Shown: positions 5,032 through 35,740, counted from the stretch's first letter. The stretch: DNA of 37,027 bases from Bdellovibrionales bacterium (GCA_041736775.1 JBGSSY010000232.1:1-37027); one strand, 5' to 3'. The notes: generated by a model from the letters alone, not told the origin. Program-made: numbers and translations.

Positions 5032-5143
5032 CCCCCGCCGCCGATTTTTGTATTCTTTCAGGTTGGAGACCACTTTCCCGTAACATCGTGGAGGGGGAGT
5101 GGTCTCCAACCGATCAGAAAGGATTCAAAAGAGGCGGCGCGGG
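5032..5143. repeat. long imperfect palindrome with a 13-bp perfect core; candidate oriT or structured RNA
   Basis: GGTTGGAGACCAC (5061-5073) pairs with GTGGTCTCCAACC (5099-5111) around a 25-nt loop. Outer imperfect pairing includes TTCTTTC/GAAAGGA and the GC-rich ends CCCCCGCCGCCG (5032-5043) and GGCGGCGCGGG (5133-5143). Confidence 0.5.
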
Positions 5144-5234
5144 TAAGGTGTTGATTAGATTATTTAATTCCACTTGTTTTTTAGAATTAATAATTTTAGT
5201 TATCCGAACCTATGTTCGGTTTTCGTTCGGATAA

Positions 5235-20651: not shown

Positions 20652-22187
20652 TTAGTTTCTCGATTTATATCCCTTAAATGACAGCTGAACTTTATCTAAA
20701 AGTGAGGCATTTGTTAGCTCGAATCCAGCTGTTGAGAGGCTATCCATCAAAGCTTGCCATACAGCACCACTTGAGCTGTTAAAAACTAAACTCATACATC
20801 CATTTCTTTTAAGTACACGATTCATTTCCTCAAAAGATTTTGTCATAAGATTTGAGTAATTATCTAAATCTTTGCCGCCTTTGCACGATTTGAGCGATTT
20901 ATTTACAACAGCTTCGTCCACAATTGATGTTGGATTACCAAGCCAAGCTTCTGCTATAAAATTGCAGTCTGCATAAAAAATATTCGCGCCGAAAGGTGGA
21001 TCTGTATAAATATAATCGATACTTGATTCATTTATTGTTTTCAAACTTGTGGCTGAGTTTCGATTTAACTTTACAAGTGAATTTGTTGAGTACTGGTTAA
21101 GAGAAGAGAAGTATTTGTACAGTGTATCGATCTTATTTGCAAAAATCTGATAGACGTTTCCTTCGCTGTAAAGCTGAGGGAAGTATAAAGTGCCAGTGAG
21201 TGGTCTATGGCCTCCTTTAGAATTGTATCTTCGCATCTTTGTCCCGTGCCAAGCTGTGTTTGTAAACGCAAGCATTAAAGCAGCTTGGATTCTCTGGTCT
21301 GCGATCTGAGTTATTTCTTGGTAAAGCGAAGTTAGTGCGAGCCAATTGGTGTCTGAGTAAAAATCTCTTAGTTTGGTTACATTTTGCAAATGTAATGCGG
21401 ACCTAATATGCATTTCACGATTAGCGTCAAATGGTGTATTCGCAATTTGATTAAATGAATTACAGCTACTAATTTTGGTTCTTGTCCTTTCAATAGGATT
21501 TTCTATTTCTTTGAGTTCAAGTCTACTAGACGTTTTTATTACTCCTGCTAGGGAGGCCCTTTTTTCAACAGCTTTTAGATTAGACTTACGATTTGATCTG
21601 TTGCAATTTGGACATTTTATAATCGATGGGACTTTGTAGTTTGGTGATTGTTTAGCTACTTCCCATGCGGAAATTTGTTTAGAGCAAAACTCACAAGAGA
21701 ATATGTCTGCAAAAACTAAGTAGCTAATTTCGCGTTCCGTACCATCAATTTTAGCAAAATAGGGTGATTTGTGTTTAAGTTTTTCAATTATAATATCAGA
21801 GATATGTTTTAATTTTACATGATCGCAGAATGCAACATGGTTGGCAGATAGATGAATTGCCAATGAGCCAATATCAGAAAGATATGCATTTCTTCCAGTT
21901 AATTTTGCAGCTAACCCCGTCATCCCGCTCCCACAAAATGGGTCTAAAATATTCTGGTTTTGCTTTGTGTTCGATAGGATTCTTTTTACAATATTATCTA
22001 CCGGTACTTTCGTTGGGTAAGAGTGTGTATTGTAGAAAATGCTTCCCTTACTACTGCCTAAGCCGAGTTTAAGGTCATATTTCATCTGGGTGTTGAAGAC
22101 TGTTTGATAAGACTCTAGATAACTATTCTGTGTATATATTTTATCAAAAAAAGTTATAGTCTTTTGGTTTAATTTTTGTTTCTTCAA
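20652..22187 (-). CDS. DNA (probably N6-adenine or N4-cytosine) methyltransferase with a zinc-ribbon insert
   Basis: HSYPTKVP...ILDPFCGSGMTG (AdoMet motif, aa 55-91). CEFC (165-168) and CPNC (192-195). IDYIYTDPPFG (catalytic motif IV, D396 = nt 21002-21000). TTG start with AGGAG 6 nt upstream. Confidence 0.85.
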   Translation of the reverse strand: MKKQKLNQKTITFFDKIYTQNSYLESYQTVFNTQMKYDLKLGLGSSKGSIFYNTHSYPTKVPVDNIVKRILSNTKQNQNILDPFCGSGMTGLAAKLTGRNAYLSDIGSLAIHLSANHVAFCDHVKLKHISDIIIEKLKHKSPYFAKIDGTEREISYLVFADIFSCEFCSKQISAWEVAKQSPNYKVPSIIKCPNCNRSNRKSNLKAVEKRASLAGVIKTSSRLELKEIENPIERTRTKISSCNSFNQIANTPFDANREMHIRSALHLQNVTKLRDFYSDTNWLALTSLYQEITQIADQRIQAALMLAFTNTAWHGTKMRRYNSKGGHRPLTGTLYFPQLYSEGNVYQIFANKIDTLYKYFSSLNQYSTNSLVKLNRNSATSLKTINESSIDYIYTDPPFGANIFYADCNFIAEAWLGNPTSIVDEAVVNKSLKSCKGGKDLDNYSNLMTKSFEEMNRVLKRNGCMSLVFNSSSGAVWQALMDSLSTAGFELTNASLLDKVQLSFKGYKSRN

Positions 22188-22351
22188 AATATTCTCCTGT
22201 TGAGTAAGGTTAACAGGGTTGAATAATTGAGTATTTTTTAAAATATATTTAACTGAACTTAAGTCTCATAAAACCAGCTCTTTGGCGAGTTGTTGCTTTT
22301 ACTGATCTTCTAGCTTTTGAGTACGGTTGTTTTTCAATTTACACTCATAAT

Positions 22352-22876
22352 ATGTTAAAACTACTAAGTGTGAAGCAGCTTCACGCTAATTTCATAGCTG
22401 ATCTAGAAAATCGAGTTGTTTCAACATCATCAATTACACAAAAACCACTTGATGTAATAGCTAGTCCACCAATGCGCAGCCTAAGAGTTTATTTGTATAA
22501 TTTAACTAAACCTCCTGGCGGAAGATCAGAGGATGAATACAAGATACAAATTATAATTCCAGGACAAGTGCGTGGCGAGAAAGGGAATTTTGACTTTTCC
22601 AAAGAAGATCATGTCGTGCTTTTGATAGGATATGAGCAAAATTTTGGAGTTTGGGCTCTCTGGGATGCTTATCTATATAAAGATATTTCCTATTCAAGAA
22701 ATGTACAAATTAAATCACATGCATTAATAAAAGCGGCTTCTTCTGGATTTGGCGAACAACAAAGAGAAACCAAAAATGGTTTAGAAACAGTTTTAACTTG
22801 TTCAAGAAAAAATCTAGCTGAAGCCGTTCAGAAAAGAATATCAATGTGGGTCAATGATCTTGTGAGCAAAATATGA
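22352..22876 (+). CDS. hypothetical protein, first gene of the nuclease-helicase operon
   Basis: 174 aa. Its stop overlaps the next start (ATGA). No catalytic motif recognised. Possibly a DNA or modification reader, which is speculation. Confidence 0.5.
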   Translation: MLKLLSVKQLHANFIADLENRVVSTSSITQKPLDVIASPPMRSLRVYLYNLTKPPGGRSEDEYKIQIIIPGQVRGEKGNFDFSKEDHVVLLIGYEQNFGVWALWDAYLYKDISYSRNVQIKSHALIKAASSGFGEQQRETKNGLETVLTCSRKNLAEAVQKRISMWVNDLVSKI

Positions 22877-25020
22877 CCCTTCAAGATCTTAAACTTCTCT
22901 TTTGTTATGACTCTGGTCCAAATGATCTGGCGGAGGAATTTTATATTCCATGTATGAAAAACTCACAAAGATATGATAGAGCTGTTGGTTTTTTTTCTAG
23001 CTCAATTTTTCAGATGAATTGGCGAGGTCTTCGTTATTTCTTAAAAAACAATGGACTTATTAGAATCGTATGCTCTCAACACATGCAACTAAAAGATGTT
23101 AAAATTATGACATCGACCAAAATTAATGCACAGAATGATATTCACGATGGTTTAATTAAAGAAATTGATAAACTTATGGAGAATGAATCTGGTCGAGCGG
23201 CTTTAGTAGTTTTTTCTTATCTCATCTCAACTGAAAGACTGAAGCTGAAGATTGCGGTTCCCGAGTCTTCATTAAACTCTAGTTCATTGTCTATCTTTCA
23301 TTCAAAAGTAGGTATTTTTACTGATGAAGTGGGTAGTAAGGTAGTTTTTAAGGGATCATCAAACGAATCGAATGGAGCTTTTTCTAAGGATGGAAACGCC
23401 GAGACTGTAGATGTTTATTGTTCTTGGATTAACCCTAACGAAAGTAAAAGAGTAGAAAAAGAATGCCAAAACTTTGAAAACTTATGGAAAAATGAATTTA
23501 CAGGATTAAGGGTGTTTGAATTTCCTGAGGCGATTAAGCAAAAAATATTAAAAATTTCTGACGGGAAAAATATAAATGATTTCCTGAAAATTCTTGAGAA
23601 TTTACCCAATGAAGACGATTTTGAAAAGATAAATATAGATGATTTATGCCTTTCTGTTAATAAAAAATTTTCGATGAGCTTACCCCTAAGGGAGCATCAG
23701 ATCAAATCTTTAAAAGAGTGGAATCAAGCAGGTTTTAAAGGATTAATGGAGCATGCAACGGGTTCAGGTAAAACTGTTACGGGAATATCGGCGGCAATCA
23801 CTGCATTGAACAATGGTTTATCTGTGATTATTCTAGTACCTAGTGCATTACTACTTGCCCAGTGGAAACTTGAAATTCAGAAACTGATTGAGCCAACTCC
23901 GCCAGTTCTACTTTGTGGGGACGGGAATAGAACATGGAAAAATTTTGGTTTAAAAAATTGGGTATCCGAAGCGGAGAATCCAAGGATTGTAATCTCAACA
24001 ATTTCTACTGCATGTTCTGATGAGTTTATAGAACAATTGGACCAAAGTAGTGGTTGGACACTAATTGTGGACGAAGTTCATAGAATTGGAAGTATAGGCT
24101 GTGAAAAGTTTTTAAGATTAAATCCCGAATATAGATTGGGTTTGAGTGCTACACCTACGCGTGCAGGTGATCCTCTGGGAACTAAAAGAATTGTAGATTT
24201 TTTTCAGACAGTACTACCGACAAAATTTGGTTTGTCTGATGCAATTCGTTTAGGTGTATTAACGCCGTATCATTACTCAATTCGAACAGTCGAGCTTACT
24301 CAAGAGGAAATGGAGAAGTGGATATCAATTTCCAGAAAGCTTGCAGTTCTGAGCTCAGGGCAAGAATCAGGTGATTCTAATTGTATTGCTCAAATTGAAA
24401 GACTTTTGATTGAGAGATTTCGTATCGTAAAGGGTGCTGAAAATAAAATTGAAAAGGCAGTGAATTTGATAGCTGATAGATATAGTCAGGGCGACAGATG
24501 GATCGTCTATTGCGATTCAGTTTCCCAGCTTGAGAGTCTATTTGTAGGATTATCCCGAACTTCGATTACAGTTTCAAAGTATTACGCAGGTATGGCTGGT
24601 GATCAAAAGCAAACTTTAAGATTTTTTGAGCGGGTTGGAGGCGTGGTTCTATCAATTCGTTGCCTTGATGAGGGGATTGATATCCCCGCAGCTAGTCATG
24701 CGCTTATTATTGCAAGCTCTCAAAATCCGAGAGAATTTATTCAGAGGAGAGGGCGTGTCCTTAGAAAATCTCCTAACAAGTCTATTTCATATATTACTGA
24801 TCTAATCACGTTGCCGTCTCTAGATTATTTGGATGAAGAAGCAAAATCTTGCGGAAGGTTTATAACAGCTGAACTTGCAAGAGCATCTCTTTTTGCAAAA
24901 GACGCAATAAATCCAAATGTTACATTTGATATAGAAAGAATTGCTGAACGTTTTGCAATAAATATTAAAGAAAATTCTGAAGATGGAATTGAGAATGATT
25001 TGGAGGAAAATAATGAGTGA
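22873..25020 (+). CDS. HKD (phospholipase-D-family) nuclease fused to an SF2 (ResIII/DEAH-type) helicase
   Basis: N-terminal YDRAVGFFSSS and a single HKD motif HSKVGIFTD...GSSNES (H143 = nt 23299). Helicase motifs: ATGSGKT (I), LIVDEVH (II), SAT (III), QRRGRVLR (VI). Confidence 0.85.
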   Translation: MTLQDLKLLFCYDSGPNDLAEEFYIPCMKNSQRYDRAVGFFSSSIFQMNWRGLRYFLKNNGLIRIVCSQHMQLKDVKIMTSTKINAQNDIHDGLIKEIDKLMENESGRAALVVFSYLISTERLKLKIAVPESSLNSSSLSIFHSKVGIFTDEVGSKVVFKGSSNESNGAFSKDGNAETVDVYCSWINPNESKRVEKECQNFENLWKNEFTGLRVFEFPEAIKQKILKISDGKNINDFLKILENLPNEDDFEKINIDDLCLSVNKKFSMSLPLREHQIKSLKEWNQAGFKGLMEHATGSGKTVTGISAAITALNNGLSVIILVPSALLLAQWKLEIQKLIEPTPPVLLCGDGNRTWKNFGLKNWVSEAENPRIVISTISTACSDEFIEQLDQSSGWTLIVDEVHRIGSIGCEKFLRLNPEYRLGLSATPTRAGDPLGTKRIVDFFQTVLPTKFGLSDAIRLGVLTPYHYSIRTVELTQEEMEKWISISRKLAVLSSGQESGDSNCIAQIERLLIERFRIVKGAENKIEKAVNLIADRYSQGDRWIVYCDSVSQLESLFVGLSRTSITVSKYYAGMAGDQKQTLRFFERVGGVVLSIRCLDEGIDIPAASHALIIASSQNPREFIQRRGRVLRKSPNKSISYITDLITLPSLDYLDEEAKSCGRFITAELARASLFAKDAINPNVTFDIERIAERFAINIKENSEDGIENDLEENNE

Positions 25021-25204
25021 ACTTAAAGAGTTGGCATCGGTCTTAAAGCGAATATGGGATGATATGGAAGAAGATCAAAAAATTGATTTTGAGTTAGCGG
25101 AAAAGATTTTAATAGCTGAATCAGAGAATTTAGAAGATCCGCAAAGAGCCAAACAAGCTATTACTATGTTAGTTGAAGAGTATCTTGAAAATAAAGTGAG
25201 GTAA
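25013..25204 (+). CDS. small acidic protein (63 aa)
   Basis: ATG at 25013 after GGAGG, overlapping the helicase stop by 8 nt. 17 D/E versus 9 K/R by my count. The track's longer start at 24983 lacks an RBS. Confidence 0.5.
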   Translation: MSELKELASVLKRIWDDMEEDQKIDFELAEKILIAESENLEDPQRAKQAITMLVEEYLENKVR

Positions 25205-25205
25205 T

Positions 25206-27137
25206 ATGTTTAGGGTAAAAAAATTGATACTAAACGAGTTTGGACCATATAAAGGCAGGCAAGAGATTGTTTTCCCTGAAACAGATGGAGTGGTTGTTTT
25301 TTTTGGTGAGAACGGTCGTGGTAAAACCTCACTACTCAATGCTATTCGGTTCGTACTATTTGATCGGATTCTTGGTCGTGGATCTAGAACTGTTGATTAC
25401 AAAAATATTCTAAACTGGGAATCCGCAGCAGAAGGAAAAAAGGAGTTTTCAGTCGAATTGGAGTTCTCTTTCAATGATGAGGATTTTCATCTTATAAGAG
25501 TTTGTTTGCCATTTTCGGGTCCGTCTCAAAAAACAGAGACCTTTCTTAGGCGAAAAGGTGTGAGCCTTGCTCCTGATTTAGCTCAAAAAACAATATCCAA
25601 AATTATGCCAGAACAGGTTTCAAGATTCTTTCTGTTTGATGGTGAACTTCTTCAAGAATATGAAGATCTGCTTTTGGAAACAAATCAAAGTGTAGGCATT
25701 AAGGATGCTATCGAGAGAATACTAGGGGTACCAATTTTAACCAATGCGATTTCGCATTTACAAGACTCTTTAAGAGAAGCGAAGAGAACTGAAGCAAGGT
25801 CGCTAGAAAGTGTTAGTAAAACAAAACATATTGGTGAGGCGTTAAAGCAACTTCAAGAAATTGAATCATCGCTTGAAATTGACAAGAAACAGGTTGAGCG
25901 TGATTTAGCTCAAGCTAGGATTGAAAAACTCGCTTGTGAGTCGGTTATGCGAGAAAACGAAAAAGCTGGTGAAGTGATAGGAAGAAAAAGTGTCCTCGTA
26001 AGCGAAGTTAGAGACATGAAGGGCGACTTGGGACAGCTTGAAGCTGATCTTAGTCAGCAATCTAAGTTTATGTGGCTTATGCCGTTGAAGCAAAAAATTC
26101 AGGAGCACCTCAAACAATTACTTCTTGATCAAGACAAGATTATACAGGGTTTTGGAAATCAAGTGAAAGCTACGTTGGCAAAAAGAAGCGCACAGGAGGG
26201 GCACTGTGCTCTCTGTAGCACATCACTGATCGAAGGAATAAGAAAAGATTTAGATTTATTCGCGGATGGTATTCTTCAAGAAAATAATACTTCCATAAGT
26301 GGTATCCAAGTGAACGGAGGAAGGATACAAAAGCTACAAGATATTATTAGCAAGTCCGATACAAATTTTGTTCAACATTTAATCGAACAAATAAGGTTAA
26401 AGAAAAACAGAATCCATGAAAAAGAAATTGAAATTATTGACTTAGAAAAACAACTTATTGGTATAGATGAAAAAGAAATTTCATCTAGTAAGATAAGATT
26501 TGAGCGAGTAATAAAAGAGATATCTAATCTCGAATTGCAACTTAGCAAGATTCAAACAGATCTCGCAACCAAGCGAGTTGAAATTCAGGAATATCAAAAG
26601 AGTCTTGGTAAAGTTAGTGAAAAAAGTAGTTCAAAGGACACTTTGAGAAGATCTTTTTACGATCAACTTTTACAAGTTTTTGGTTCTGGATTAGATATGT
26701 ATAGAGATCGACTGCGACATCATGTAGAAAAAGAATCTACAGCATTATTTCGCGGATTTTCCAGTGATAAGGACTATGAAAAACTAAAGATTAATCAGAA
26801 CTACGGATTAACGATTGTACACCATGATGGAACGGAGATTCCGGTTAGATCCGCTGGATTTGAACATATTGTTGCGCTTTCTTTAATGGGGTCTCTTCAA
26901 AAAAATGCCCCGCTGAGGGGTCCAATTTTTATGGATAGTCCGATGGGTAGATTGGATAGAGCTCATAAAGTTAATGTCACCAAAGGATTACCACTTATGT
27001 CTACTCAGGTTGCTTTGCTGGTATATGAAGACGAGATAAGTCAAGACGATGTTGTTGAGATATTGGGATCAAAATTATTGAAAAGATATCATTTGAAAAG
27101 AATTTCTGCGCGGCACACCATCATAGAGGAGAAATGA
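25206..27137 (+). CDS. DndD-type SMC/Rad50-like ABC ATPase
   Basis: N-terminus LNEFGPYKGRQEIVF...FFGENGRGKTSLLNAIRFVLF (Walker A). FFLFDGELL (Q-loop region). Long heptad-like middle with CALC at aa 334-337. C-terminus IFMDSPMGRLD...QVALLVYEDEI matches the DndD family D-loop/Walker B region as I remember it. Confidence 0.75.
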   Translation: MFRVKKLILNEFGPYKGRQEIVFPETDGVVVFFGENGRGKTSLLNAIRFVLFDRILGRGSRTVDYKNILNWESAAEGKKEFSVELEFSFNDEDFHLIRVCLPFSGPSQKTETFLRRKGVSLAPDLAQKTISKIMPEQVSRFFLFDGELLQEYEDLLLETNQSVGIKDAIERILGVPILTNAISHLQDSLREAKRTEARSLESVSKTKHIGEALKQLQEIESSLEIDKKQVERDLAQARIEKLACESVMRENEKAGEVIGRKSVLVSEVRDMKGDLGQLEADLSQQSKFMWLMPLKQKIQEHLKQLLLDQDKIIQGFGNQVKATLAKRSAQEGHCALCSTSLIEGIRKDLDLFADGILQENNTSISGIQVNGGRIQKLQDIISKSDTNFVQHLIEQIRLKKNRIHEKEIEIIDLEKQLIGIDEKEISSSKIRFERVIKEISNLELQLSKIQTDLATKRVEIQEYQKSLGKVSEKSSSKDTLRRSFYDQLLQVFGSGLDMYRDRLRHHVEKESTALFRGFSSDKDYEKLKINQNYGLTIVHHDGTEIPVRSAGFEHIVALSLMGSLQKNAPLRGPIFMDSPMGRLDRAHKVNVTKGLPLMSTQVALLVYEDEISQDDVVEILGSKLLKRYHLKRISARHTIIEEK

Positions 27138-27138
27138 T

Positions 27139-27492
27139 ATGTCAAATAAAGACAAGGTAACGATTGGGCTTACTCAAGGTGGTAAGGCATGTTTAGACCG
27201 AATTTTAAAATTAGGGTGGTTTAACCATGATATGGATTTAGCAAAATTCGCTATGGCTTTTGCTATAGCAAGAAAAGTTATTCCGGGTGAAGCGAAAGGT
27301 GCGGCCACTGTTTGGAATGTTGGTTCACTTGACTCCGATGGTTCTGTATCTACAATTATCCAAGAGCTTTGTGGCGAACGAGAATCTCCGTACAAATTAG
27401 CCGAACATCTAATAGATGAGGGCTTGAAATTAATTGTTGAGCAAATTAATGCTAGACCTGAAATTAGCTTAGAAGAATTATTAGCTACATAG
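27139..27492 (+). CDS. small protein in the DndE position (DndE-like?, unverified)
   Basis: 117 aa with a GAGGAG RBS; the start is 1 nt after the ATPase stop. Its size and its position directly after a DndD-type gene mirror dndD-dndE. Sequence similarity to DndE could not be verified by eye. Confidence 0.4.
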   Translation: MSNKDKVTIGLTQGGKACLDRILKLGWFNHDMDLAKFAMAFAIARKVIPGEAKGAATVWNVGSLDSDGSVSTIIQELCGERESPYKLAEHLIDEGLKLIVEQINARPEISLEELLAT

Positions 27493-27504
27493 TTATTATT
27501 AAAA

Positions 27505-27541
27505 ATCTCCTTTTTTAAATAGGAGATAATTTTTTGTTTTT
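27505..27541 (+). terminator. rho-independent terminator of the five-gene operon
   Basis: ATCTCCT (27505-27511), 9-nt loop, AGGAGAT (27521-27527), followed by AATTTTTTGTTTTT. Confidence 0.65.
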
Positions 27542-27770
27542 GATTGGCACTCAAAAATTAAATGCATTGTAAAAATAGTTTCCCCAGCAGTAAAGTTTAA
27601 AAAAGTAGACACGAATTTATTTTTTTGATGGAGTTTTCAGGAGTAATCACGCCACTCGATTTTAGTTTATTTAAAAATGATCGCTATTAAATTTTAGTAT
27701 ATTATAAAAATATATACCAATTCAAATTTACTAAAGTACTGAATTCATTCGACATTAGTAAATACATTAA

Positions 27771-27832
27771 TTTGGCTGTCCAGTTATTTTAGGCTATACA
27801 TTTTTATAGCCTAAAATAACTGGACAGCCAAA
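27771..27832. repeat. perfect 28-bp inverted repeat with a 6-nt loop (62 nt)
   Basis: TTTGGCTGTCCAGTTATTTTAGGCTATA (27771-27798), catttt, TATAGCCTAAAATAACTGGACAGCCAAA (27805-27832). Ends 23 nt before the ATG at 27856. Confidence 0.9.
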
Positions 27833-27855
27833 CTTTCTATGTATATATGATTTGA

Positions 27856-28257
27856 ATGACAGAACTTGAGTACCAAACAAACTTGACTAGCTACCTGAAT
27901 AAACGGCTTGCACGTGTCAGAGCTTGGCCTGTGAAGGGACGTAAAACAACCTTCCTCGGCCGTAGTCTTTATCCTGATCTTGAATTTGAGTCAGATATAG
28001 CGGGAAGGTTAGATGTTATTGCTATTGTTGAACTTAAAGTTAGAGGAAGATTAAATCTTTATCAACCTATGTTATATGCAATTTTAAAAAATGCTCCAGC
28101 CTACTGTATAGTCGATGGGAAAAGAAGAACTTCGATTAGATGGTTCATCAATCCTCTTTCTTCAAAAAAAAATTTAATAAATCAAAAAAAGTTTAGCAAG
28201 GTACTTTATGAAATAAAAATAGCAATAGAGGACTTTAATTATAATAATTTTATTTAG
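27856..28257 (+). CDS. small PD-(D/E)xK-fold nuclease-like protein
   Basis: 133 aa. YPDLEFES ... LDVIAIVELKV gives a PD...D...ExK arrangement. No obvious SD sequence. Confidence 0.45.
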   Translation: MTELEYQTNLTSYLNKRLARVRAWPVKGRKTTFLGRSLYPDLEFESDIAGRLDVIAIVELKVRGRLNLYQPMLYAILKNAPAYCIVDGKRRTSIRWFINPLSSKKNLINQKKFSKVLYEIKIAIEDFNYNNFI

Positions 28258-28265
28258 GAGAGAAT

Positions 28266-29549
28266 ATGAAAAAAAATGGGTTTGATAAACAGAAAAGACT
28301 TTTTGAATTAATTGATCAGCTTATAGGAGATCTTCCAAAGCTAGTAAGGAAAGGGAACGGTGCTCCAAAAGCCGCAGAGGCTAAAACTCGTCACGATTTC
28401 GAAGATGTAAGGACCGGTGCTAAAATTACTCATGTGCATTTAGAGCTAAGAGATTTTATTAAAGTATCATCACTGAATGATAATTTTTTTCAACGAAAAC
28501 TACAAAACCATTTAACTGATAAGATTTATAAGAACTTAATAATATCTATTTTACAAGGTCACCTCATTCCAGAGCTTAGAGTTGCGGTTCTTATGCACAA
28601 ATCTAAAGTAACGGCCTTTGATAAAAATGAATTTTTAGCCGCAACTTATAAGGTGTCAATAATTGATGGTCTTCAGCGATATGGATGCTTTTTGATTGCA
28701 ATGTTTCTTGCTGCAAGAGGACAGGATTTGGTTACTGAAAATATAATTAGTCCAGCTGTATATAAAGAGTTTGAGCAATACCTCGGGGTTGACTCTTTAG
28801 AAAAAGTTCTCGCTTCAAAAATTAGATTAGAGGTTTATTACAATCTAGAAATTAAAGACTTACTGAAATATATGATTATATTTAACACAGCTCAAAGAAG
28901 AATGTCTTTGAACCATCAGCTTGAAATCATGGAAGGTACTATACTTCAAAACTTAAAAGAAAATCATAAAGCAAATTTTATTCGAGATACTGATGCTGGC
29001 TCTAAGAAAAACCAATTCACAGGTGCAGACTTAGTATTGGCAATACAAGCTTACCTTCAGCAAGACCATACAATATCTAAAAATGCGACCACTGATGATC
29101 TATTTCATAGCATGAAAAGTGACGATAAGATTGTTGATGATAAAATTGATGAAATTTGCAAAGGCATCTCTTTAATAACAAATAAATTACATCCTGTGGT
29201 TAAAGAGTTTTACGAAGAAACAGAGGAAAGTAAATACATGAACATTCTGCCGGGTAGCACGAGCCAATTTATGGTTCCTATGATGGCTAGTCTCGGTACT
29301 TATACCGAGCGAGAGGGGAATGATCAAAAGTTGATAGTTAGATCAATAAATCGCATTTTGAATTTATATAAAGAGGGGAATGATGTTTTTGAGCTTGAGG
29401 AGTACTATAAGATCACTGACGAAATTAAAAGTAGTCGAGGTGCTACTATAAAAAATATGGCAGAGAGGGCGTTTAGAGATTTTTGGTTCGATAAAACAGC
29501 TACCTCACTAAACTGGCAATATGCTTATAAGACTATTCGCAATAACTAG
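28266..29549 (+). CDS. ParB/sulfiredoxin-fold protein of the DndB / DUF262 (DGQHR/DGQQR) type
   Basis: VSIIDGLQRYGCF (DGxQR motif) and downstream IIFNTAQRRMSLNHQ (FxxxN...L motif). AGGAGAG RBS, 8 nt after the previous gene. Confidence 0.55.
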   Translation: MKKNGFDKQKRLFELIDQLIGDLPKLVRKGNGAPKAAEAKTRHDFEDVRTGAKITHVHLELRDFIKVSSLNDNFFQRKLQNHLTDKIYKNLIISILQGHLIPELRVAVLMHKSKVTAFDKNEFLAATYKVSIIDGLQRYGCFLIAMFLAARGQDLVTENIISPAVYKEFEQYLGVDSLEKVLASKIRLEVYYNLEIKDLLKYMIIFNTAQRRMSLNHQLEIMEGTILQNLKENHKANFIRDTDAGSKKNQFTGADLVLAIQAYLQQDHTISKNATTDDLFHSMKSDDKIVDDKIDEICKGISLITNKLHPVVKEFYEETEESKYMNILPGSTSQFMVPMMASLGTYTEREGNDQKLIVRSINRILNLYKEGNDVFELEEYYKITDEIKSSRGATIKNMAERAFRDFWFDKTATSLNWQYAYKTIRNN

Positions 29550-29590
29550 ATGTGCTAAATTGTATTCAAATATTTAAGGATTAATATCTA

Positions 29591-32500
29591 ATGCAAAAGA
29601 AAAAAAATGAAAAATTAGTTTTTTCGCCAACTGATTTGAGTCGATACTTCGAGAGTAAGTTTTCATCTTGGATGGATCATTATGAGAAGTTGTTTGAAAA
29701 CAGTGGACCATTAGGTAAGATTCATAGAAATCCACCCGATGATTTATTGTCACTTTTAAAACAGCAGGGTTTGGAGCACGAATCTAGGGTAATTGATCGG
29801 GAAAAAATAAAAAATAAGTTCATAAAAATTGATGGTGAATCCACTGAGGAGAAAATAAAAAATACAATCTCGGCTATGGGGGCAGGTTTTGATTTAATAT
29901 ATCAAGGAGCATTAAGTTCTGAAACATTTTTTGGCTATGCAGACATTCTTCAGAAGAAGAAGGGTACTTCGTCTTTGGGAGAACATTACTACGTTCCTTA
30001 TGATGTAAAATTATCATCTGTTGCTAAACCAACTGCAATAATTCAGCTTCTTACCTATTGTGATTTACTAAAGTCTATCCAAAATAAAATTCCAGATGAG
30101 ATTGGTGTAATTACCAAAGATGAATCGTTGCATTTGTTCAGTGTATCTAGTTTTTATCATTTTTTCTGTTTTTTCAGAGATGATTTTCTTAATTTTCATA
30201 GATATTTTGACCCTTCGAGACAACCTTTGCCTGAAAAGACAAAAGATCATCGTGACTGGTCAATCTATGCAAAAAAAATACTTCATGAAAAAGATGATGT
30301 GGCATTAACAGCTAAGCTTAGAGCTACTCATTTAGAAATTCTTAAACAAGAGGGCATATTCACTTTAACTAAACTTTCGGAGTTCGAGGGGGTTAAGTTG
30401 AAAGGAATTCCCGATGAGACGCTTACCACTTTAAAAAAGCAGGCTAAGCTACAAGTCGCATCAAAGGGGAAGAGACCCCCGCTTTACGAAGTATTGCCTC
30501 ATAGTGGTAGAATGGGTCTGTCGATGTTACCGGAGCAAACGGATGACGATATTTTTTTTGATATGGAAGGATATCCTCTAATAGGAAAATCAGGTTTAGA
30601 ATATTTGTATGGCTTTGCAAATAGAAGTCGTAAGTATGAAACTATATGGGCGTATTCTACCTCAGATGAAGCAGTTTCGTTCAAAAAATTTGTAGAGCTT
30701 ATTCATGTTAAATGGATGTCAAACAGATCAATTAAAATTTATCATTATGGTCATTATGAACCGTCAACTTTAAAGAGATTAATGGGTCAATATGGTTTAT
30801 GCGAAAGAATGATAGATGATTTACTTCGGTCAGAAGTGTTTGTAGATCTTTATCAAATTTTGAAACAGTCCTTACTTATTGGGACATATTCATATAGTCT
30901 TAAGTCAATAGAATCCCTCTATTATCCTGAAAGAGAAACTATTGTTTCTAGCGGTGCGGACTCAGCTGTTGAGTTTTCTAAGTGGCTTATTGAAGGTGGT
31001 GATCCAAGAAAGTCTAAATTTTTGAGTCGGATCGAAGATTATAATCGAGATGATTGTTTTTCTACTCTTGATCTTGAGCGTTTTTTAAGAAAGATAAAGA
31101 AAGAGATGGGAATAAATTATATTCCAATTAATTCAGATGAGAAATTAAAAAGAGAAGAAGATCCTGACGCCTTAAAGACAATTTGTTCGTCTCAAGCAAA
31201 AAGAATGCTTGAGTCCATTGATAAAAAGTTTTTAGGATTAAGTTTTGAAAATGCCGATATACCATCGTACGTCTGTGAACAGATAGCACATTGCTTGGAT
31301 TTTGTAAGAAGAGAGGAAAATCCTGAATGGTGGGATTTTTTTTCATTACATGATATTTCACAAGAAGATTTGCGTGAATCCCCAGACGCCCTTATTAACG
31401 TTAGAATTAAAAGTATTTCAGGCAAAGAGTATATTTGTGTTTTTGATTTAGCTCAAGATTCTAAATTTCACAAAAGCTCAAGCGTAAGAGTTCTGGAAAA
31501 CCAATCTCCAAATGAAAAATTAAATGTTGAAAATATTGATTATTCTCGTGGAGAGATTGTCTTGTCTGGAAAATTTTCATCTTTGCCTAATGATTATTTT
31601 ACTCTTGCTCCAGGTAAAGTTTTTTTTAATAAAGACATGATTTTGAAAGCATTGCTAAAGATTGCATTGAGCTTTGATAAAACAAAAAAATATTTTGGTT
31701 TGAAAAAATGTGTTCACGATATTCTGATCAAGTCGAGTCCAGATATTAAAGGTCGGAAATCAGATGAACCTCTAATTAGTGGTCAAAATGCAATTCCAGA
31801 ATTAACAGACCTTGTCTTGAAGATGAATAATACTATTTTGTGCATTCAGGGGCCTCCTGGAACGGGAAAGACTTACACGGGTTCACGGATTATTAGTGAA
31901 TTGTTTAAGAGAAATAAGGTGGTAGCTATTTCAAGCAATTCTCACAAGGCAATGAATCACTTAGCTCTCAAAGTATCTGAGATGAATCCTAGGTCTAGAA
32001 TAATTAAGCTATCATCTGGTGATAAACTTAAAGAGGATAAAATACAGTTTGAAGGAACTAATATTGAAGTTAAAACAACAAGTGTAAAACAAAGTGAACT
32101 TGGCTCCTACGATTTAATAGTTGGTACTGTTTACTATCTCTCAAAACTTGAAAATGCTGTAGATTACTTGTTTATTGACGAGGCTACACAAGTTGCTCTG
32201 CCTAATCTCTTGGCTATGGCGAACTGTACAAGTAATATTTTACTATTAGGTGATCAGATGCAGCTTGAGCAACCTATCAAAGGGGCCCATCCAGGGGAAA
32301 GCGGTAACTCTGCGCTTGTCCACTTAACAAACGGCAGAAAAACTGTAGAACGGAGTTTTGGAATTTTTTTAGAAACTACTTATAGAATGCATCCAGAAAT
32401 TTGTTCATTTATTAGTGAGGAGTTTTACGATTCACGATTGTTTTCACATCCTGATACAGTGAAACAAAAAATTCTTTGGAATTTACATAAACAAGCGGGT

Positions 32501-32995
32501 CTTTTATATATGCCTATTGAGCATATTGGAAACACTCATGCTTCGCTTGAAGAAGTTAAATGTATTAAAGATTTATTTAGTGAAGCACTTAAATCTGAAT
32601 GGATTAACGAGAAAGGTGAGTCTAAGCTCGTGACCTATGAAGACATACTTATAGTTGCACCTTACAATCACCAAGTAGCACTTTTAAAGGAAGCTTTGCC
32701 AGATAAAGCTAGGGTTGGAACTGTTGATTTATTTCAAGGGCAGGAGGCAGCTATCGTTATTACTTCAATGTGTTCGTCTACATTAGAGGATGCGCCAAGA
32801 GGGCCTAATTTTTTACTTAATAGCAATAGAATAAACGTTGCGATTTCTCGGGCTAAAGCATTGTCTATTGTCGTCGGATCTCCAAGTCTAGCCAGTGGAC
32901 AGAGTTCATCTATTGCATCTATGAAATTGATTTCTACTTATTGCCATTTAGTTATGGTGTATTTTGATAAATTAAAAATTAAGAACAAAGGTTAA
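29591..32995 (+). CDS. RecB-like (TM0106-family) PD-(D/E)xK nuclease + RNaseH-like domain + SF1B (Upf1/DNA2-like) helicase
   Basis: N-terminus FSPTDLSRYFESKF, GLEHES, GYADIL...YVPYDVKLS. Middle DIFFDMEGYP, IYHYGHYEPSTLKRL, YNRDDCFST. C-terminus GPPGTGKT (I), FIDEATQ (II), GDQMQL (III), TYRMHPEI, VDLFQGQEA (V), RINVAISRAK (VI). Confidence 0.8.
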   Translation: MQKKKNEKLVFSPTDLSRYFESKFSSWMDHYEKLFENSGPLGKIHRNPPDDLLSLLKQQGLEHESRVIDREKIKNKFIKIDGESTEEKIKNTISAMGAGFDLIYQGALSSETFFGYADILQKKKGTSSLGEHYYVPYDVKLSSVAKPTAIIQLLTYCDLLKSIQNKIPDEIGVITKDESLHLFSVSSFYHFFCFFRDDFLNFHRYFDPSRQPLPEKTKDHRDWSIYAKKILHEKDDVALTAKLRATHLEILKQEGIFTLTKLSEFEGVKLKGIPDETLTTLKKQAKLQVASKGKRPPLYEVLPHSGRMGLSMLPEQTDDDIFFDMEGYPLIGKSGLEYLYGFANRSRKYETIWAYSTSDEAVSFKKFVELIHVKWMSNRSIKIYHYGHYEPSTLKRLMGQYGLCERMIDDLLRSEVFVDLYQILKQSLLIGTYSYSLKSIESLYYPERETIVSSGADSAVEFSKWLIEGGDPRKSKFLSRIEDYNRDDCFSTLDLERFLRKIKKEMGINYIPINSDEKLKREEDPDALKTICSSQAKRMLESIDKKFLGLSFENADIPSYVCEQIAHCLDFVRREENPEWWDFFSLHDISQEDLRESPDALINVRIKSISGKEYICVFDLAQDSKFHKSSSVRVLENQSPNEKLNVENIDYSRGEIVLSGKFSSLPNDYFTLAPGKVFFNKDMILKALLKIALSFDKTKKYFGLKKCVHDILIKSSPDIKGRKSDEPLISGQNAIPELTDLVLKMNNTILCIQGPPGTGKTYTGSRIISELFKRNKVVAISSNSHKAMNHLALKVSEMNPRSRIIKLSSGDKLKEDKIQFEGTNIEVKTTSVKQSELGSYDLIVGTVYYLSKLENAVDYLFIDEATQVALPNLLAMANCTSNILLLGDQMQLEQPIKGAHPGESGNSALVHLTNGRKTVERSFGIFLETTYRMHPEICSFISEEFYDSRLFSHPDTVKQKILWNLHKQAGLLYMPIEHIGNTHASLEEVKCIKDLFSEALKSEWINEKGESKLVTYEDILIVAPYNHQVALLKEALPDKARVGTVDLFQGQEAAIVITSMCSSTLEDAPRGPNFLLNSNRINVAISRAKALSIVVGSPSLASGQSSSIASMKLISTYCHLVMVYFDKLKIKNKG

Positions 32996-33126
32996 GAAAA
33001 TAAATCTTTATCAAAGATGCTTATTTAAAGCTTAGAAGACTTAGGTGAAGATGCCGTCGAGCGAATTATCTAAAGATTAAAACAAATTTACTGTTTCAAT
33101 CTTTCTTGCATTTTTCATTAATTTAT

Positions 33127-33603
33127 CTAAATAAATATTAAACCATCATTATCTTCGGTCGTTCTTTTAATAATGATTTTCCCTGCATAAAAACCGATGA
33201 CAAGTATACCTACGGCAGTTCCTATCATTATGCCATTCTCCGGACTACCAAAGTAATTTCCAACTGCTGATCCAGTCGCTCCTGCAGTTGTAACCAGCAG
33301 AAAAGCTTGAAAGTGAAGGTAGTTAGTTTTTTCGAGCACTCTTCTTTTTCTATTTTTGAACTTAGTAAAATCAGGTTTAGAATCAGAATTGTGTGCGTGA
33401 ATGAGAGCGATTAACTCATCCAAATCTTGCTCGTATAGATCGCTATTAAAATAGTCTTTAATTTTTTTGCTACCTTTGGACATTTGGTTAATACTATTGT
33501 TAGTAACATTGGAAATGTAATTTAAAGAATCCTGAGATCGCTTGGTAATGATTTTAGAAGCTTTCAAACCAGTTCTACGAATCCTATTATACGTCTTTTT
33601 CAT
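33127..33603 (-). CDS. hypothetical membrane protein
   Basis: 158 aa with C-terminal hydrophobic segments (LLVTTAGATGSAVGNYF, IMIGTAVGILVIGFYAG). Confidence 0.4.
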   Translation of the reverse strand: MKKTYNRIRRTGLKASKIITKRSQDSLNYISNVTNNSINQMSKGSKKIKDYFNSDLYEQDLDELIALIHAHNSDSKPDFTKFKNRKRRVLEKTNYLHFQAFLLVTTAGATGSAVGNYFGSPENGIMIGTAVGILVIGFYAGKIIIKRTTEDNDGLIFI

Positions 33604-33870
33604 ATAAATTTTCCGCCTTTCGATTCTTATTCAGAATGCAAGCCATGTGCTAGACGCAATTGAGTTATTAGCTTTAGGGGTCTGATTTTTTGCTTAAATG
33701 CCAAAAATTGTTATTTGAAGCGCTTCATAAATGCTTCCTGTAAGGGCTGCAAAGCCAGCAATAGACCTTAAGTCCCCAGGTTCTAGCTCCCGCTCTCTTC
33801 GTATACTAGCGTGATTAGAGCTAATATAGGCAAGCCACGGCCTTTTCCCTCTGAAAAGGGGTCATTTTAG

Positions 33871-33911
33871 GTGAAGCATTCGTGAAGCTTCCGTGAAGCA
33901 AACTCGTGAAA
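33871..33911 (+). repeat. four phased direct repeats GTGAAGC/GTGAAAC (candidate arm-type recombinase or iteron sites)
   Basis: GTGAAGC at 33871, 33882 and 33893, and GTGAAAC at 33905. Spacing is 11, 11 and 12 nt. Located in the non-coding arm ~120 bp inside the tRNA-proximal repeat. Confidence 0.5.
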
Positions 33912-34026
33912 CGTCATGATATTTCATTAAAAAATAGGCATAACAGCAAAACCCCCTCTGTGGGATTTCAATTACTTACAATTATTAGGGATTTTTTGTG
34001 CTGTTTTTTTGGGATTTTAGGTCAAA

Positions 34027-34110
<84 letters not shown>

Positions 34111-34339
34111 AAGGATATGAAATTGTAAAGAGCTATCAGTTATGAAGAAGGCGGGGCTTAATGTCAATCAAAGTCCCGCGCGGGGAGTGGGATTTGCTGA
34201 TGGTATGATCTGTTTTGCCCTGTAAAAGACCCAAAACTTTTAAATCCTTGGGGCATTGCGACTTTAGTCCTTTGAACTTTAGAGGGGGCTTTTAAGAGAA
34301 TTGGTTTATTTGCTTCTCCTAAGACCCTATAATAAAGGG

Positions 34340-35740
34340 ATGTTACGACACCCTTGTTTCCTCGCCCTAGTTTTGTTTTTTTCATTTTTTTTCGCATCAG
34401 CAGAAGAGAAAAAACCGGCCTACTTACTTCTTCCAAAAGACATTTACTTTCAGCCCGCCGGTGGTCTTCGTGTTCGCTACGATAAACTCAATGACGGAAC
34501 GGGAAAGGCCTTCACCAGCGAAGAAGACGATTCACGGGTGCAACAAAGAGCACAATTTGATGTGAAACTTCTTAAGGGTGAGTACTTTGAAACTTTCTTT
34601 CGTTTTATCCACTTTAGTGAGTGGGGCGAATCGGTTGGTAATACCATTAGTCCCCAAAAAGATGCCTTTAATCGAGGCAATGGACTTCTTGTCAACCAAG
34701 CTTGGGCCCTTTGGAAGGTGGATGACTCTTTAGGGATTCAGCTTGGCCGAGCTCCACTTAATTTTGGTCTGGGTTTTGTCTATGGTTATAATGACTGGTT
34801 CAATGTTCCTTACACTTTTGATTATTTTGATTTTGCTTGGGATTGGGAGTCTCTGAATCTTTCTCTGATTTACGCTAAAATCGAAGAGCTCGAAAGAGTT
34901 TCAGGGCAAACATTAAGTCCTGATCCTGAAGAGAACCACATTATTATCAACATTGATGTTAAAAATTTATCTGACGCTTTAGAAACATTTAACTTTAATA
35001 TCGTGCAAGTCAACCGTGACTTAGGTTCAAATGATGGTGGCGCCAGTGTTCTTAATGGTCTCAATATGCAAAAGTTCTCTCTAGAAACCGCGCTCAATTT
35101 TAGAAATTTCTTTTCTACTCTTTTTATCTCCTATGGGACGGGCGACGAAAAAGTCGCACCCGTTAATCAAGTCGGTGGTATCGAAAATGTGAGAATATCA
35201 CACACCGCTCTTGATTTTAAATTAGGGTATCGCTCTCAAGAGCTGGGGGGCTTAAGAATCTGGGGAGGAATTCATTCTGACTCCGGTGATAAAACGCCTG
35301 GTGATAACGAATCTCAAACTTTTAATCCGCTTTATTACAATGTTTATGGTCAATCAGGTCTGATGGATCTTTTGCGTTGGGGTAATCTCAGTTTTTATCG
35401 CATTGGTCTTGATATCGATATATTTACCGGCCTTAAACTGGGATCAGAATGGCTGTCCTTTTCTCGAACCGAAGTGGCCGATGGTATAAACTTCGGAGAC
35501 TCAGGACGCTTTTTGGATAGTCGAATTGCTTCAGGAGATATCATTCTTGGTCCTGGTAAAGAGCTTGGCAGTGAGCTTGATCTGTGGGCCGACTGGAACT
35601 TTCAGAGTGGGGTGAACGTACGAGCCACAGTTTCTTCATTCTTTCCTAATGGTGCGTTTAAAGAAGCCACCAGTGTATCTGGCTCCAGCCCCTCCAGTGC
35701 CATCACCCAGTTCTTGGCGCAAGTGGGTTACTTTTTTTAA
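34340..35740 (+). CDS. outer-membrane beta-barrel protein (alginate-export/porin-like)
   Basis: ATG at 34340 after AAAGGG gives the signal peptide MLRHPCFLALVLFFSFFFASA. Alternating beta-strand-like composition and a C-terminal ...VGYFF aromatic terminus typical of OMPs. Confidence 0.6.
   Translation: MLRHPCFLALVLFFSFFFASAEEKKPAYLLLPKDIYFQPAGGLRVRYDKLNDGTGKAFTSEEDDSRVQQRAQFDVKLLKGEYFETFFRFIHFSEWGESVGNTISPQKDAFNRGNGLLVNQAWALWKVDDSLGIQLGRAPLNFGLGFVYGYNDWFNVPYTFDYFDFAWDWESLNLSLIYAKIEELERVSGQTLSPDPEENHIIINIDVKNLSDALETFNFNIVQVNRDLGSNDGGASVLNGLNMQKFSLETALNFRNFFSTLFISYGTGDEKVAPVNQVGGIENVRISHTALDFKLGYRSQELGGLRIWGGIHSDSGDKTPGDNESQTFNPLYYNVYGQSGLMDLLRWGNLSFYRIGLDIDIFTGLKLGSEWLSFSRTEVADGINFGDSGRFLDSRIASGDIILGPGKELGSELDLWADWNFQSGVNVRATVSSFFPNGAFKEATSVSGSSPSSAITQFLAQVGYFF

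Follow-up and report, generated by a model that had tools for sequence, protein, structure and literature searches.

The 12.3-kb stretch at 20652-32995 of the window (the whole 37,027-nt stretch of DNA analysed) is probably a defence island, carried as cargo by an ICE at tRNA-Pro and composed of three independent modules that travel separately in other genomes. Module A belongs to the methylase-linked "Pbe / CxC-ATPase-DndE" restriction-like systems, which are already in the literature; module B, with its two genes, is a small relative of Dazbog/GmrSD; and module C is a common stand-alone nuclease-helicase whose family is widespread and uncharacterised. A single new Dnd-derived system is not what the stretch encodes. 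Nine ORFs are counted (1+5+3), not ten as in the original prediction; every ORF named there lies where it had been placed, and each motif it quoted was recovered in the translated ORFs (Table 1). The family matches of the ORFs in PADLOC, Pfam and NCBIfam are far above chance. Module A spans 20652-27492, module B 27856-29549 and module C 29591-32995.

Table 1. Coordinates of the island genes, of sites between them and of the carrier element
Feature	Coordinates	Strand	Basis
Integrase	3210-4310		
DNA amino-methyltransferase (MTase), 511 aa	20652..22187	-	PADLOC MTase_II 3.2e-113, PglXI 1.5e-78
MTaX1 (methylase-associated X1), 174 aa, first operon gene	22352..22876	+	Pfam PF20296, 4.6e-20
PbeA, HKD (PLD-type) nuclease + SF2 helicase/translocase, 715 aa	22873..25020	+	PADLOC PbeA 5.6e-194
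PbeB-position small acidic protein, 73 aa	24983..25204	+	Position, size, composition only
PbeC, ABC ATPase, CxC clade (sister to DndD), coiled coil, 643 aa	25206..27137	+	PADLOC PbeC 8e-164
PbeD-position DndE-like small protein, 117 aa	27139..27492	+	Homology to post-PbeC gene in related loci
Terminator-like hairpin (ATCTCCT, 9-nt loop, AGGAGAT), then T-run	27505..27535	+	Direct sequence reading
28-nt perfect inverted repeat, candidate operator	27771..27832	.	24 bp upstream of module B start codon
p133, 133 aa, predicted mini restriction-fold nuclease	27856..28257	+	Conserved PD...ExK motif
DzbA-like protein, 427 aa, DUF262/DndB-type ParB/Srx-like domain	28266..29549	+	PADLOC DzbA 2.8e-28
TM0106-family protein, 1134 aa	29591..32995	+	TIGR03491 194 bits, above 97 cut-off
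Candidate attR, 15-bp direct repeat AAAAAATTGGTCGGG	34027..34041	.	Overlaps tRNA-Pro 3' end
tRNA-Pro (TGG), integration target	34034..34110	-	ARAGORN

The carrier element

The ICE is about 31 kb long and integrated at tRNA-Pro. The 15-bp repeat occurs a second time immediately outside the integrase gene, at 3100-3114, and is the only exact match of at least 14 bp between 1-5300 and 33001-34400, against a naive expectation of about 0.007. The conjugation genes in the window encode a T4CP and VirB10-, VirB9-, VirB8- and VirB4-like proteins. With integrase, T4CP, VirB-like genes, tRNA-Pro and direct repeat all found, the earlier description of the locus as ICE cargo stands.

Module A is a methylase-linked Pbe system

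The MTase gene is divergent from the five-gene operon, and its product is circularly permuted: motif I (DPFCGSG, residues 82-88) comes before motif IV (TDPPF, residues 395-399). Pfam N6_N4_Mtase is matched in two stretches, with the C-terminal part of the profile on the protein N-terminus, and the halves of both the Pfam and the PADLOC profiles match in swapped order. A CxxC...CxxC insert is located at residues 165-195. In sequence identity the MTase reaches 40% with plasmid MTases of Arthrobacter and 28% with the MTase domain of a BREX-3 protein; its target base may be N4-C or N6-A. BREX type 3, in which a PglXI methylase is accompanied by PglZ, BrxC, BrxHI and further genes, was rejected, as the MTase alone resembles PglXI and the window contains neither PglZ nor BrxC.

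The operon genes overlap or abut, with a 4-bp overlap between MTaX1 and the start of PbeA followed by 1-bp gaps, one of them between PbeC and the gene of the 117-aa protein. MTaX1 scores 72.7 bits against a Pfam cut-off of 25, and in loci L063-L065 a homologue immediately precedes PbeA (E = 1e-24 to 4e-29; the L063 contig stops within or just after PbeA). In L064 the MTaX1 and MTase matches fall in one ORF, which looks like an MTase-MTaX1 fusion. PbeA carries HSKVGIFTD (143-151, HKD), GSSN (161-164), TGSGKT (296-301), DEVH (400-403) and QRRGR (624-628), with helicase motifs I, II, III and VI present. It matches Pfam ResIII, Helicase_C and, weakly, PLDc_2, reaches 302 bits with TIGR04095 dnd_restrict_1 (under the 600 cut-off), and is 36-38% identical to PbeA in related Pbe loci.

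The 73-aa ORF has no family match in PADLOC, Pfam or NCBIfam and is a putative PbeB by position, size and composition (18 D/E versus 12 K/R). Its true start is possibly further in, because the first 38 bp of the ORF still lie within PbeA. A small ORF also sits between PbeA and PbeC in L053 ('DNA modification system-associated small protein') and L064 (63 aa), and PbeB is described as small, disordered and rapidly evolving (PMC10853773).

In PbeC, the motifs GENGRGKTS (34-42), FFLFDGE (141-147), DSPMGRLD (577-584) and LLVYEDE (604-610) are found. The ORF matches PADLOC PbeC at 8e-164 versus 1.2e-49 for DndD, and reaches 144 bits with TIGR03185 DndD, under the 246 cut-off. A CxxC zinc hook at C334 and C337 (CALC, 334-337) aligns with CPTC/CPVC in L053, L064 and L065, and was not found in the three canonical DndD proteins aligned with PbeC. 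The CxC systems encode a cognate DndE with two RHH repeats right behind the ATPase, and the 117-aa protein fits this in position and size. It has homologues in L053 (E = 4e-9), L064 and L065, encoded in each case by the gene after the PbeC homologue. Its family (238 representatives, about 115-125 aa) gives a weak but co-linear hhalign profile match to seven canonical DndE over 100 columns (P = 0.0017, probability 15%), and one member matches RHH_8. The operon probably ends at the hairpin behind this gene, which the pattern scan for terminators left uncalled because its 9-nt loop exceeds the 8-nt loop limit. The order PbeA, small ORF, PbeC, DndE-position gene recurs beside a methylase in L053, L064 and L065.

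A six-frame reading of the whole window shows neither SGGxDS PP-loop nor SSGSAC-type desulfurase signatures, and none of the nine ORFs matches a DndA, DndC or Ssp model in PADLOC, Pfam or NCBIfam, as had been predicted. Dnd (DndABCDE) was accordingly rejected, with no DndC PP-loop or DndA/IscS in the window and the TIGR03185 score below cut-off. Hma was rejected as well: HmaA is absent from the complete match list of the 715-aa protein, and HmaB is an m5C (C5) MTase, whereas the methylase here belongs to the N6_N4 type. HmaB and HmaC are absent among the best 25 of 53 matches for the MTase and the best 25 of 68 for the ATPase.

The same gene set (HKD-SF2, small protein, CxC ABC ATPase, DndE cognate, permuted methylase and MTaX1) has been described by the Aravind lab (PMC10853773, Fig. 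4A iv), and this CxC ABC-ATPase-DndE class with methylase and MTaX1 is equivalent to the methylase-paired solitary PbeABCD of PMC6459918, where an MTase is found in the vicinity of 155 among 320 solitary PbeAC. Methylase, MTaX1, PbeA, a small protein in the PbeB position, PbeC and a protein in the DndE (PbeD) position occur in module A in the same set and order, without phosphorothioate (PT) genes, and its methylase is circularly permuted as in the methylase-linked CxC systems. It differs in its divergent MTase of the PglXI-related N6_N4 family, whose target may be cytosine-N4, as in the described systems, or adenine-N6, and in having an ICE as carrier. The DndCDEA-PbeABCD system of Haloterrigena jeotgali (PMC6459918) has homologous PbeA and PbeC and the same four-gene pbe order, but its mark is phosphorothioation by DndCDEA; module A has a methylase and MTaX1, and no DndA, DndC or DndD. 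The original prediction, which held that the gene set fits none of Dnd, Ssp, Dpd, BREX, DISARM, MADS and Lamassu, overlooked Pbe (PADLOC PbeA and PbeC, of the order of 1e-194 and 1e-164). Its methylation-marked defence system built from Dnd-type parts is retained as regards the MTase with its five-gene operon, the DndD-related ATPase, the DndE-position protein and the lack of PT enzymes, and is lost as regards novelty.

Module A appears to be a methylation-coupled CxC-ABC-ATPase/DndE (PbeABCD) member with a predicted role in defence. In a mechanism proposed on the basis of PMC10853773 and PMC6459918, the permuted amino-methyltransferase would mark host DNA. A PbeC dimer joined via the zinc hook would scan DNA together with the DndE-like PbeD, and MTaX1 may aid in reading the mark. 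Unmarked DNA would then license PbeA (HKD nuclease/SF2 translocase) for blocking or cutting, with the small acidic PbeB as a possible regulator. In the tested Pbe system, cleavage of viral DNA was not seen (PMC6459918).

Module B pairs a predicted mini nuclease with a DzbA-like protein

Residues P40, D41, E43, E45, E59, L60, K61 and Q70 of p133 are invariant in seven homologues, and a PD-(D/E)xK fold is suggested by this motif only: p133 has no match in Pfam, PADLOC or PDB, and its AF2 single-sequence model has a pLDDT of 40. The DzbA-like protein covers positions 7-381 of 393 in the DzbA model, which is matched by 26 of 26 family members tested, and contains an invariant DGLQR at residues 134-138. 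Weak Pfam matches appear in the family to GmrSD_N (3/26) and DndB (2/26); Pfam DUF262 is undetected in the 427-aa protein itself, and DndB identity was rejected for it, with TIGR03233 and PF14072 unmatched above noise. Its AF2 model (pLDDT 81) finds BrxU (7p9k, E = 0.09) and SspE (6jiv, E = 0.22) as best PDB matches in Foldseek, both weak.

The p133 gene is immediately upstream of the DzbA-like gene in all seven close loci (57-76% identity). These contain no TM0106 or Pbe gene, and their neighbours vary (AbiEii, dCTP deaminase, RT, Mrr, McrBC with C5-MTase); no neighbour is conserved across the 45 distant DzbA-like loci. In L001, the p133 homologue is preceded by a 12-nt inverted repeat that shares the core TTTTAGGCTAT with the candidate operator.

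The module resembles Dazbog (DzbA + DzbB; Millman 2022) in the DzbA match, the two-gene layout in defence islands and the DUF262-type domain, but the partner here is the upstream 133-aa PD...ExK protein and there is no DzbB. Canonical Dazbog was rejected on this ground, DzbB being absent here and in homologous loci: PADLOC gives no DzbB match for p133, its six homologues or the downstream ORFs in L001, L020, L023, L047-L049 and L051. With GmrSD, BrxU and SspE the module shares the combination of a nuclease with a ParB/Srx-like NTPase domain of the DGQ(Q/H)R type, and like BrxU in BREX it adjoins a modification-based system. The nuclease, however, is a separate small PD-(D/E)xK protein in place of a fused DUF1524 HNH, and the similarity is weak; membership of these families was rejected given the absence of DUF1524, the weak DUF262 signal in 3/26 relatives and the E values of the BrxU and SspE matches. 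By analogy with GmrSD, BrxU, SspE and Dazbog, the DUF262-type NTPase sensor and the mini nuclease would most likely sense modified foreign DNA. Once triggered, they could act through DNA nicking or abortive infection, complementing module A.

Module C is a TM0106-family nuclease-helicase

In the 1134-aa protein, a RecB-like PD-(D/E)xK nuclease is joined to an Upf1-like SF1 helicase and to an RNase-H-like domain predicted to be an exonuclease. The TIGR03491 match covers residues 45-499, Pfam matches are RNase_H_2, AAA_11 and AAA_12, and PDB sequence matches are Upf1/NAM7, DNA2 and Sen1. Motifs are found at GYADI 115, YDVK 137, QLLTY 152, FFDME 322, GPPGTGKT 754, IDEATQ 862, FQGQE 1048 and SRAK 1086. 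The protein is thereby a full-length member of the TM0106 family (TIGR03491; related to DNA2/Upf1-like SF1B helicase-nucleases) with nuclease and helicase motifs intact, and this full-length architecture is widespread. Mokosh, which pairs the MkoA helicase with a MkoB PLD nuclease in type I and has the MkoC fusion in type II, was rejected: only the C-terminal helicase half (residues 858-1103) matches MkoA or MkoC, and module C has no PLD partner. With Nhi, only a P-loop match is shared. Module B genes are absent around the homologues L057-L059 (63-68% identity) and on plasmids (L054-L056). Module C would act as a stand-alone nuclease, exonuclease and 5'-3' helicase, with a conjectural role in defence.

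Independence of the modules and alternative readings

Units 2 and 3 are separated by 363 bp that hold the hairpin with its T-run and the 28-nt palindrome, and modules B and C may be co-transcribed in this element, since just 41 bp lie between the DzbA-like and TM0106 genes. No two modules occur together among the related loci compared (52 DzbA-like, 6 TM0106 and 4 Pbe), a small sample with seven close homologue loci for module B, six for module C and four for module A. The 52 DzbA-like loci have no PbeC, TM0106 or full-length PbeA relative, the PbeA-related signal being limited to two weak partial helicase-domain matches; relatives of module A or B are missing from the six TM0106 loci, and those of module B or C from the four Pbe loci. 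A single composite, methylation-marked system of all nine genes, with the ParB-like protein and the two nuclease-helicases working together with a DndD/DndE-like core, is highly improbable. Tight clustering on one strand within one cargo region would agree with such a system, as would the DndB-type proteins that canonical Dnd has alongside its DndDE cores and the dependence of SspE (DUF262) on modification from its partner genes, but no related locus joins the modules, the gap contains a separate palindrome in addition to the terminator-like hairpin, and the DzbA-like protein has no DndB-model match above noise. The original assignment of the ParB-like and 1134-aa proteins to the same system is contradicted by these loci. 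Its other suggestion, two adjacent novel systems, comes closer, but there are three modules, of which one is known, one is Dazbog/GmrSD-like and one belongs to a widespread uncharacterised family. The neighbourhood conservation it had asked about extends to the core order of module A and to the p133 + DzbA-like pair, and not to combinations of modules.

With the three modules taken separately, each admits another reading. The sole tested Pbe system strictly required PT modification, giving about 10^4-fold anti-viral protection only with Dnd-made PT and with all four pbe genes (PMC6459918), and the absence of dnd/ssp genes is established for one 37-kb contig only. Module A could on that basis be a PT-dependent restriction module that uses dnd/ssp genes elsewhere in the host, beside an unrelated or orphan MTase; we consider this unlikely. 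Methylase-associated MTaX1 heads the operon and overlaps the PbeA start, the order MTase, MTaX1, PbeA is kept in distant loci with the apparent fusion in L064, a mobile carrier favours self-contained systems, and CxC systems are independent of DndD systems and methylase-coupled (PMC10853773). There is likewise little probability that module B is an SspE-like effector with host methylation, by the module A MTase or another, as its 'self' cue. SspE, a DUF262 protein, requires a host PT mark, a C5-methylase lies within a few kb in two of five independent close contexts (L048; L051/L052), and the pair adjoins a methylase system in this window. The nearby methylases are nevertheless of differing families, the pair has none nearby in L001, L047 and L049, and the trigger of Dazbog, the named system most closely related to the pair, is a phage methylase. 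Within the preferred reading of module B as a sensor of foreign modification, p133 and the DzbA-like protein might constitute an undescribed two-gene restriction/Abi system in which the mini nuclease replaces DzbB/DUF1524, and the TM0106 nuclease-helicase a widespread unrecognised single-gene defence family; we put this forward tentatively, with the balance somewhat against it. A sizeable minority of our confidence falls on module C being a DNA repair, recombination or element-maintenance enzyme in the cargo region and not a defence gene. Its domain set is like that of end-processing enzymes of the DNA2 and AddB type, PADLOC has no model that spans the full protein, the close homologue L059 is found among housekeeping-type genes (antiporter, epimerase, glycosyltransferases), and the family is present in 218 plasmid records, of which 62 concern conjugative plasmids. 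Other homologues, however, stand beside BREX/TrlF, a type III-like restriction enzyme or a Schlafen/AlbA_2 protein, and in this element module C adjoins two defence modules.

Organization of the defence island

The window, a complete NCBI contig of 37,027 bp, carries a defence island in the cargo of an integrative conjugative element (ICE). The island begins with a methyltransferase gene divergent from an operon of five overlapping or abutting genes, and after a gap of 363 bp three further genes follow on the operon's strand. Nine convincing ORFs were counted in 20.6-33.0 kb, rather than the ten of the original prediction, and each motif quoted there was located at defined residues. They fall into three modules: the methylase and the five-gene operon (module A); p133, a 133-aa protein, with a 427-aa DzbA-like protein (module B); and a 1134-aa nuclease-helicase (module C). 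The proposal that all of these constitute one composite system is not supported, because the three modules were not found together in the other loci examined, few of which are close.

The absence of a sulfur-insertion enzyme is upheld, with neither a PP-loop (SGGxDS) nor a cysteine-desulfurase signature in any of the window's six reading frames. No Ssp, Dpd, PglZ or DUF1998 model matches any of the nine proteins, and none of them is called by the Dnd models. Two ORFs flanking the island have no family match; the longer, between module C and the tRNA, has a hydrophobic C-terminal stretch. A promoter and terminator pattern scan of the window stayed at chance level.

Coordinates of the island, its carrier element and adjoining features
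Feature	Position	Strand	Remark
Direct repeat, first copy	3100-3114		15 bp
Integrase	3210-4310
ORF, 170 aa	9637-10149	+	adjoins AbiE pair
AbiEi/AbiEii pair	10163-11687	-	complete
Flanking ORF, 77 aa	20382-20615	-	no family match
Module A	20652-27492
Methyltransferase	20652-22187	-	module A
Five-gene operon	22352-27492	+	module A
Inverted repeat	27771-27832		28 nt, perfect
Three further genes	27856-32995	+	modules B and C
p133 and DzbA-like genes	27856-29549	+	module B
TM0106-family gene	29591-32995	+	module C
Flanking ORF, 158 aa	33127-33603	-	no family match
Direct repeat, second copy	34027-34041		15 bp
tRNA-Pro	34034-34110

The ICE setting was predicted correctly: integrase, conjugation genes, tRNA-Pro and direct repeat are all in place. 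The repeat, AAAAAATTGGTCGGG, brackets an element whose length, as implied by the repeat positions, is about 30.9 kb. Its second copy covers the last 8 nt (3' end) of tRNA-Pro, and the integrase sits at the element end distant from the tRNA. After the integrase come genes for a T4 coupling protein, for VirB10-, VirB9-, VirB8- and VirB4-like proteins, and then for HTH and sigma-like regulators. The G+C content drops to 0.32-0.38 within the cargo, whereas it is 0.42-0.44 past the tRNA.

A fourth defence module lies in the transfer operon, not in the cargo: a toxin-antitoxin (abortive infection) pair, AbiEi/AbiEii (PADLOC 3.5e-31 and 7.6e-62), flanked by the VirB9-like and VirB8-like genes. The adjoining 170-aa ORF, with a weak PADLOC match to 'SNc+LTD' (1.1e-5), may encode a small staphylococcal-nuclease-like protein.

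Module A, a predicted methylase-coupled Pbe system

The methylase, an MTaX1 protein and the PbeABCD set fit within approximately 6.8 kb. The 715-aa protein is PbeA (PADLOC 5.6e-194), with its HKD and SF2 motifs intact. The 643-aa protein is PbeC, matched at 8e-164 compared with 1e-49 for DndD; against the curated DndD model it reaches 144 bits, under the 246 cut-off. Midway along its coiled coil lies a CxxC motif (C334, C337), which aligns to the CPTC/CPVC of three distant homologues and is not present in three canonical DndD proteins. The 174-aa protein belongs to Pfam MTaX1 (4.6e-20). The methylase is an N6_N4 enzyme, type II-like (3e-113), and because its motif I region (aa 54-100) comes ahead of its motif IV region (aa 367-470), it is a circular permutation of the beta-class arrangement.

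The 117-aa protein in the DndE position is homologous to the gene after the PbeC homologue in other loci, and members of its family measure about 115-125 aa. Aligned with hhalign, this family gives a weak co-linear match to seven canonical DndE proteins (P = 0.0017, 100 columns) and nothing against two DndE sequences; its profile has no meaningful sequence match in the PDB. No homologues were found for the acidic 73-aa ORF, whose position matches that of a gene on an Aurantiacibacter plasmid annotated as 'DNA modification system-associated small protein'.

Four unrelated loci were compared with module A: this Aurantiacibacter plasmid (L053) and three metagenome contigs (L063-L065). A methylase adjoins the Pbe genes in all four, with PbeA identities to the window of 36-38%. 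The order PbeA, small ORF, PbeC, DndE-like is kept in L053, L064 and L065, the L063 contig stopping at PbeA, and MTaX1 is directly upstream of PbeA in the three metagenome contigs. In L064 (6649-7992), and also in L065, one ORF carries both an MTaX1 and a methylase match and looks like a fusion; these two contigs have two methylase genes ahead of PbeA on the same strand, while the window has a single divergent one.

The window methylase also shares 28% identity with the methylase domain in a PglXI-like protein of BREX type 3, and 40% with methylases of Arthrobacter-group plasmid clusters (two methylases and an AAA ATPase). From these likenesses, several ATP-dependent defence systems seem to draw on one methylase family.

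The new Dnd-derived type free of sulfur chemistry that was originally predicted reduces to a system type which the literature and PADLOC models already cover, so the locus adds one member to it and no new concept. The 'CxC ABC-ATPase-DndE anchored system' (PMC10853773) consists of an HKD nuclease-SF2 helicase fusion, a fast-evolving small protein, a zinc-hook ABC ATPase and a DndE cognate, equated there with PbeA, PbeB, PbeC and PbeD; an MTaX1 gene is often part of it, and in many bacteria it is present without a DndD-centred phosphorothioate (PT) system. Among 553 PbeAC pairs, 320 had no nearby dndCD, and 155 of those 320 had a methylase within 10 kb, and methylation was put forward there as a possible partner of Pbe (PMC6459918). 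Predictions of such methylase-coupled systems date from 2019-2020, and no experimental test of a methylase-coupled PbeABCD was found in the literature searched. Judged by gene content, module A is an additional member of this described, computationally predicted subtype. Hma (PADLOC 2021) was rejected as a candidate for the methylase and five-gene operon: its methylase is of the m5C type, and none of the models dedicated to it was among the matches listed.

The one functional study of Pbe found (PMC6459918) reports that DndCDEA-PbeABCD cuts SNJ1 virus plaquing about 10^4-fold, each of the four pbe genes being required (pbeA only in part), that Pbe activity needs the PT mark, and that no degradation of viral DNA was observed. 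Module A might likewise rely on PT genes located outside the window, which is a single contig of the genome. This dependence is disfavoured by the presence of MTaX1 within the operon and by the conserved methylase linkage. Compact and self-contained on its ICE, module A would offer a convenient test of whether methylation can replace phosphorothioation as the mark.

Module C, a TM0106-family nuclease-helicase

The 1134-aa protein exceeds the curated TM0106 family threshold (194 vs 97 bits) and includes an RNase-H-like domain as well as an SF1 helicase of Upf1/DNA2-like type; its catalytic motifs are all intact. Its full-length architecture is widespread, in hundreds of database clusters and 218 plasmid records. 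The closest relatives (63-68% identity) and the plasmid copies have varied surroundings, none with module B genes, which argues that module C is an independent gene. Neighbours of the relatives include a type III-like restriction enzyme, a Schlafen/AlbA_2 protein, BrxL with TrlF, and housekeeping-type genes. Module C belongs to a common, uncharacterised family, frequent on plasmids and without a known role; a literature search for TM0106 returned no relevant work. A defence function is plausible.

Module B, a two-gene variation on Dazbog and GmrSD

The PADLOC DzbA model gives a near full-length match to the 427-aa protein (2.8e-28) and also matches 26 of 26 relatives tested; DGLQR is invariant across the family. 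Pfam DUF262 (GmrSD_N) and DndB match weakly in a few relatives. The family profile has no meaningful sequence match in the PDB; the AlphaFold model (pLDDT 81) has as its two best, weak, PDB matches BrxU and SspE (E = 0.09 and 0.22), both DUF262 proteins. For p133, Pfam, PADLOC and PDB profile searches returned nothing, a word-indexed database search returned the query alone, and the single-sequence AF2 model is unusable (pLDDT 40). Eight residues (P40, D41, E43, E45, E59, L60, K61 and Q70) are invariant in seven homologues, a pattern by which p133 is a predicted PD-(D/E)xK nuclease.

A p133 homologue lies immediately upstream of the DzbA-like gene in all seven loci where DzbA-like identity is 57-76%. 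Other neighbours vary among them (AbiEii; dCTP deaminase; reverse transcriptase; Mrr; McrBC with a C5-methylase), and several are on small integrase-bearing elements. The 45 distant DzbA-like relatives (about 30% identity, mostly from soil Acidobacteriota and Binatia) share no conserved neighbour.

Canonical Dazbog shares the DzbA match, but it is ruled out for module B by the lack of DzbB, found in none of the loci scanned; in module B the partner is p133 instead. Dazbog reportedly responds to a cytosine methylase of phage origin and works through abortive infection. The DUF262 proteins GmrSD, BrxU and SspE are sensors of modified DNA, and GmrSD-like genes often accompany modification-based systems. 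On these grounds module B would be a two-gene modification-sensing nuclease system complementing module A. It is a modest new variation on the Dazbog/GmrSD kind, and the pair, small and conserved, could show how DUF262-type sensors connect to different nucleases.

Among contigs with the pair, L047 and L048 each carry an integrase, accompanied in L047 by a VapE-like primase and a dCTP deaminase and in L048 by a C5-methylase, a reverse transcriptase and a resolvase; one relative is on an IMG/VR viral contig (L073). The perfect inverted repeat in the window lies 24 bp ahead of the start codon of p133. In L001, an unrelated 265-kb Logan contig with the pair, a 12-nt inverted repeat (9499-9546) with the same core, TTTTAGGCTAT, lies upstream of the p133 homologue, and the repeat may be a conserved operator of the two-gene module.
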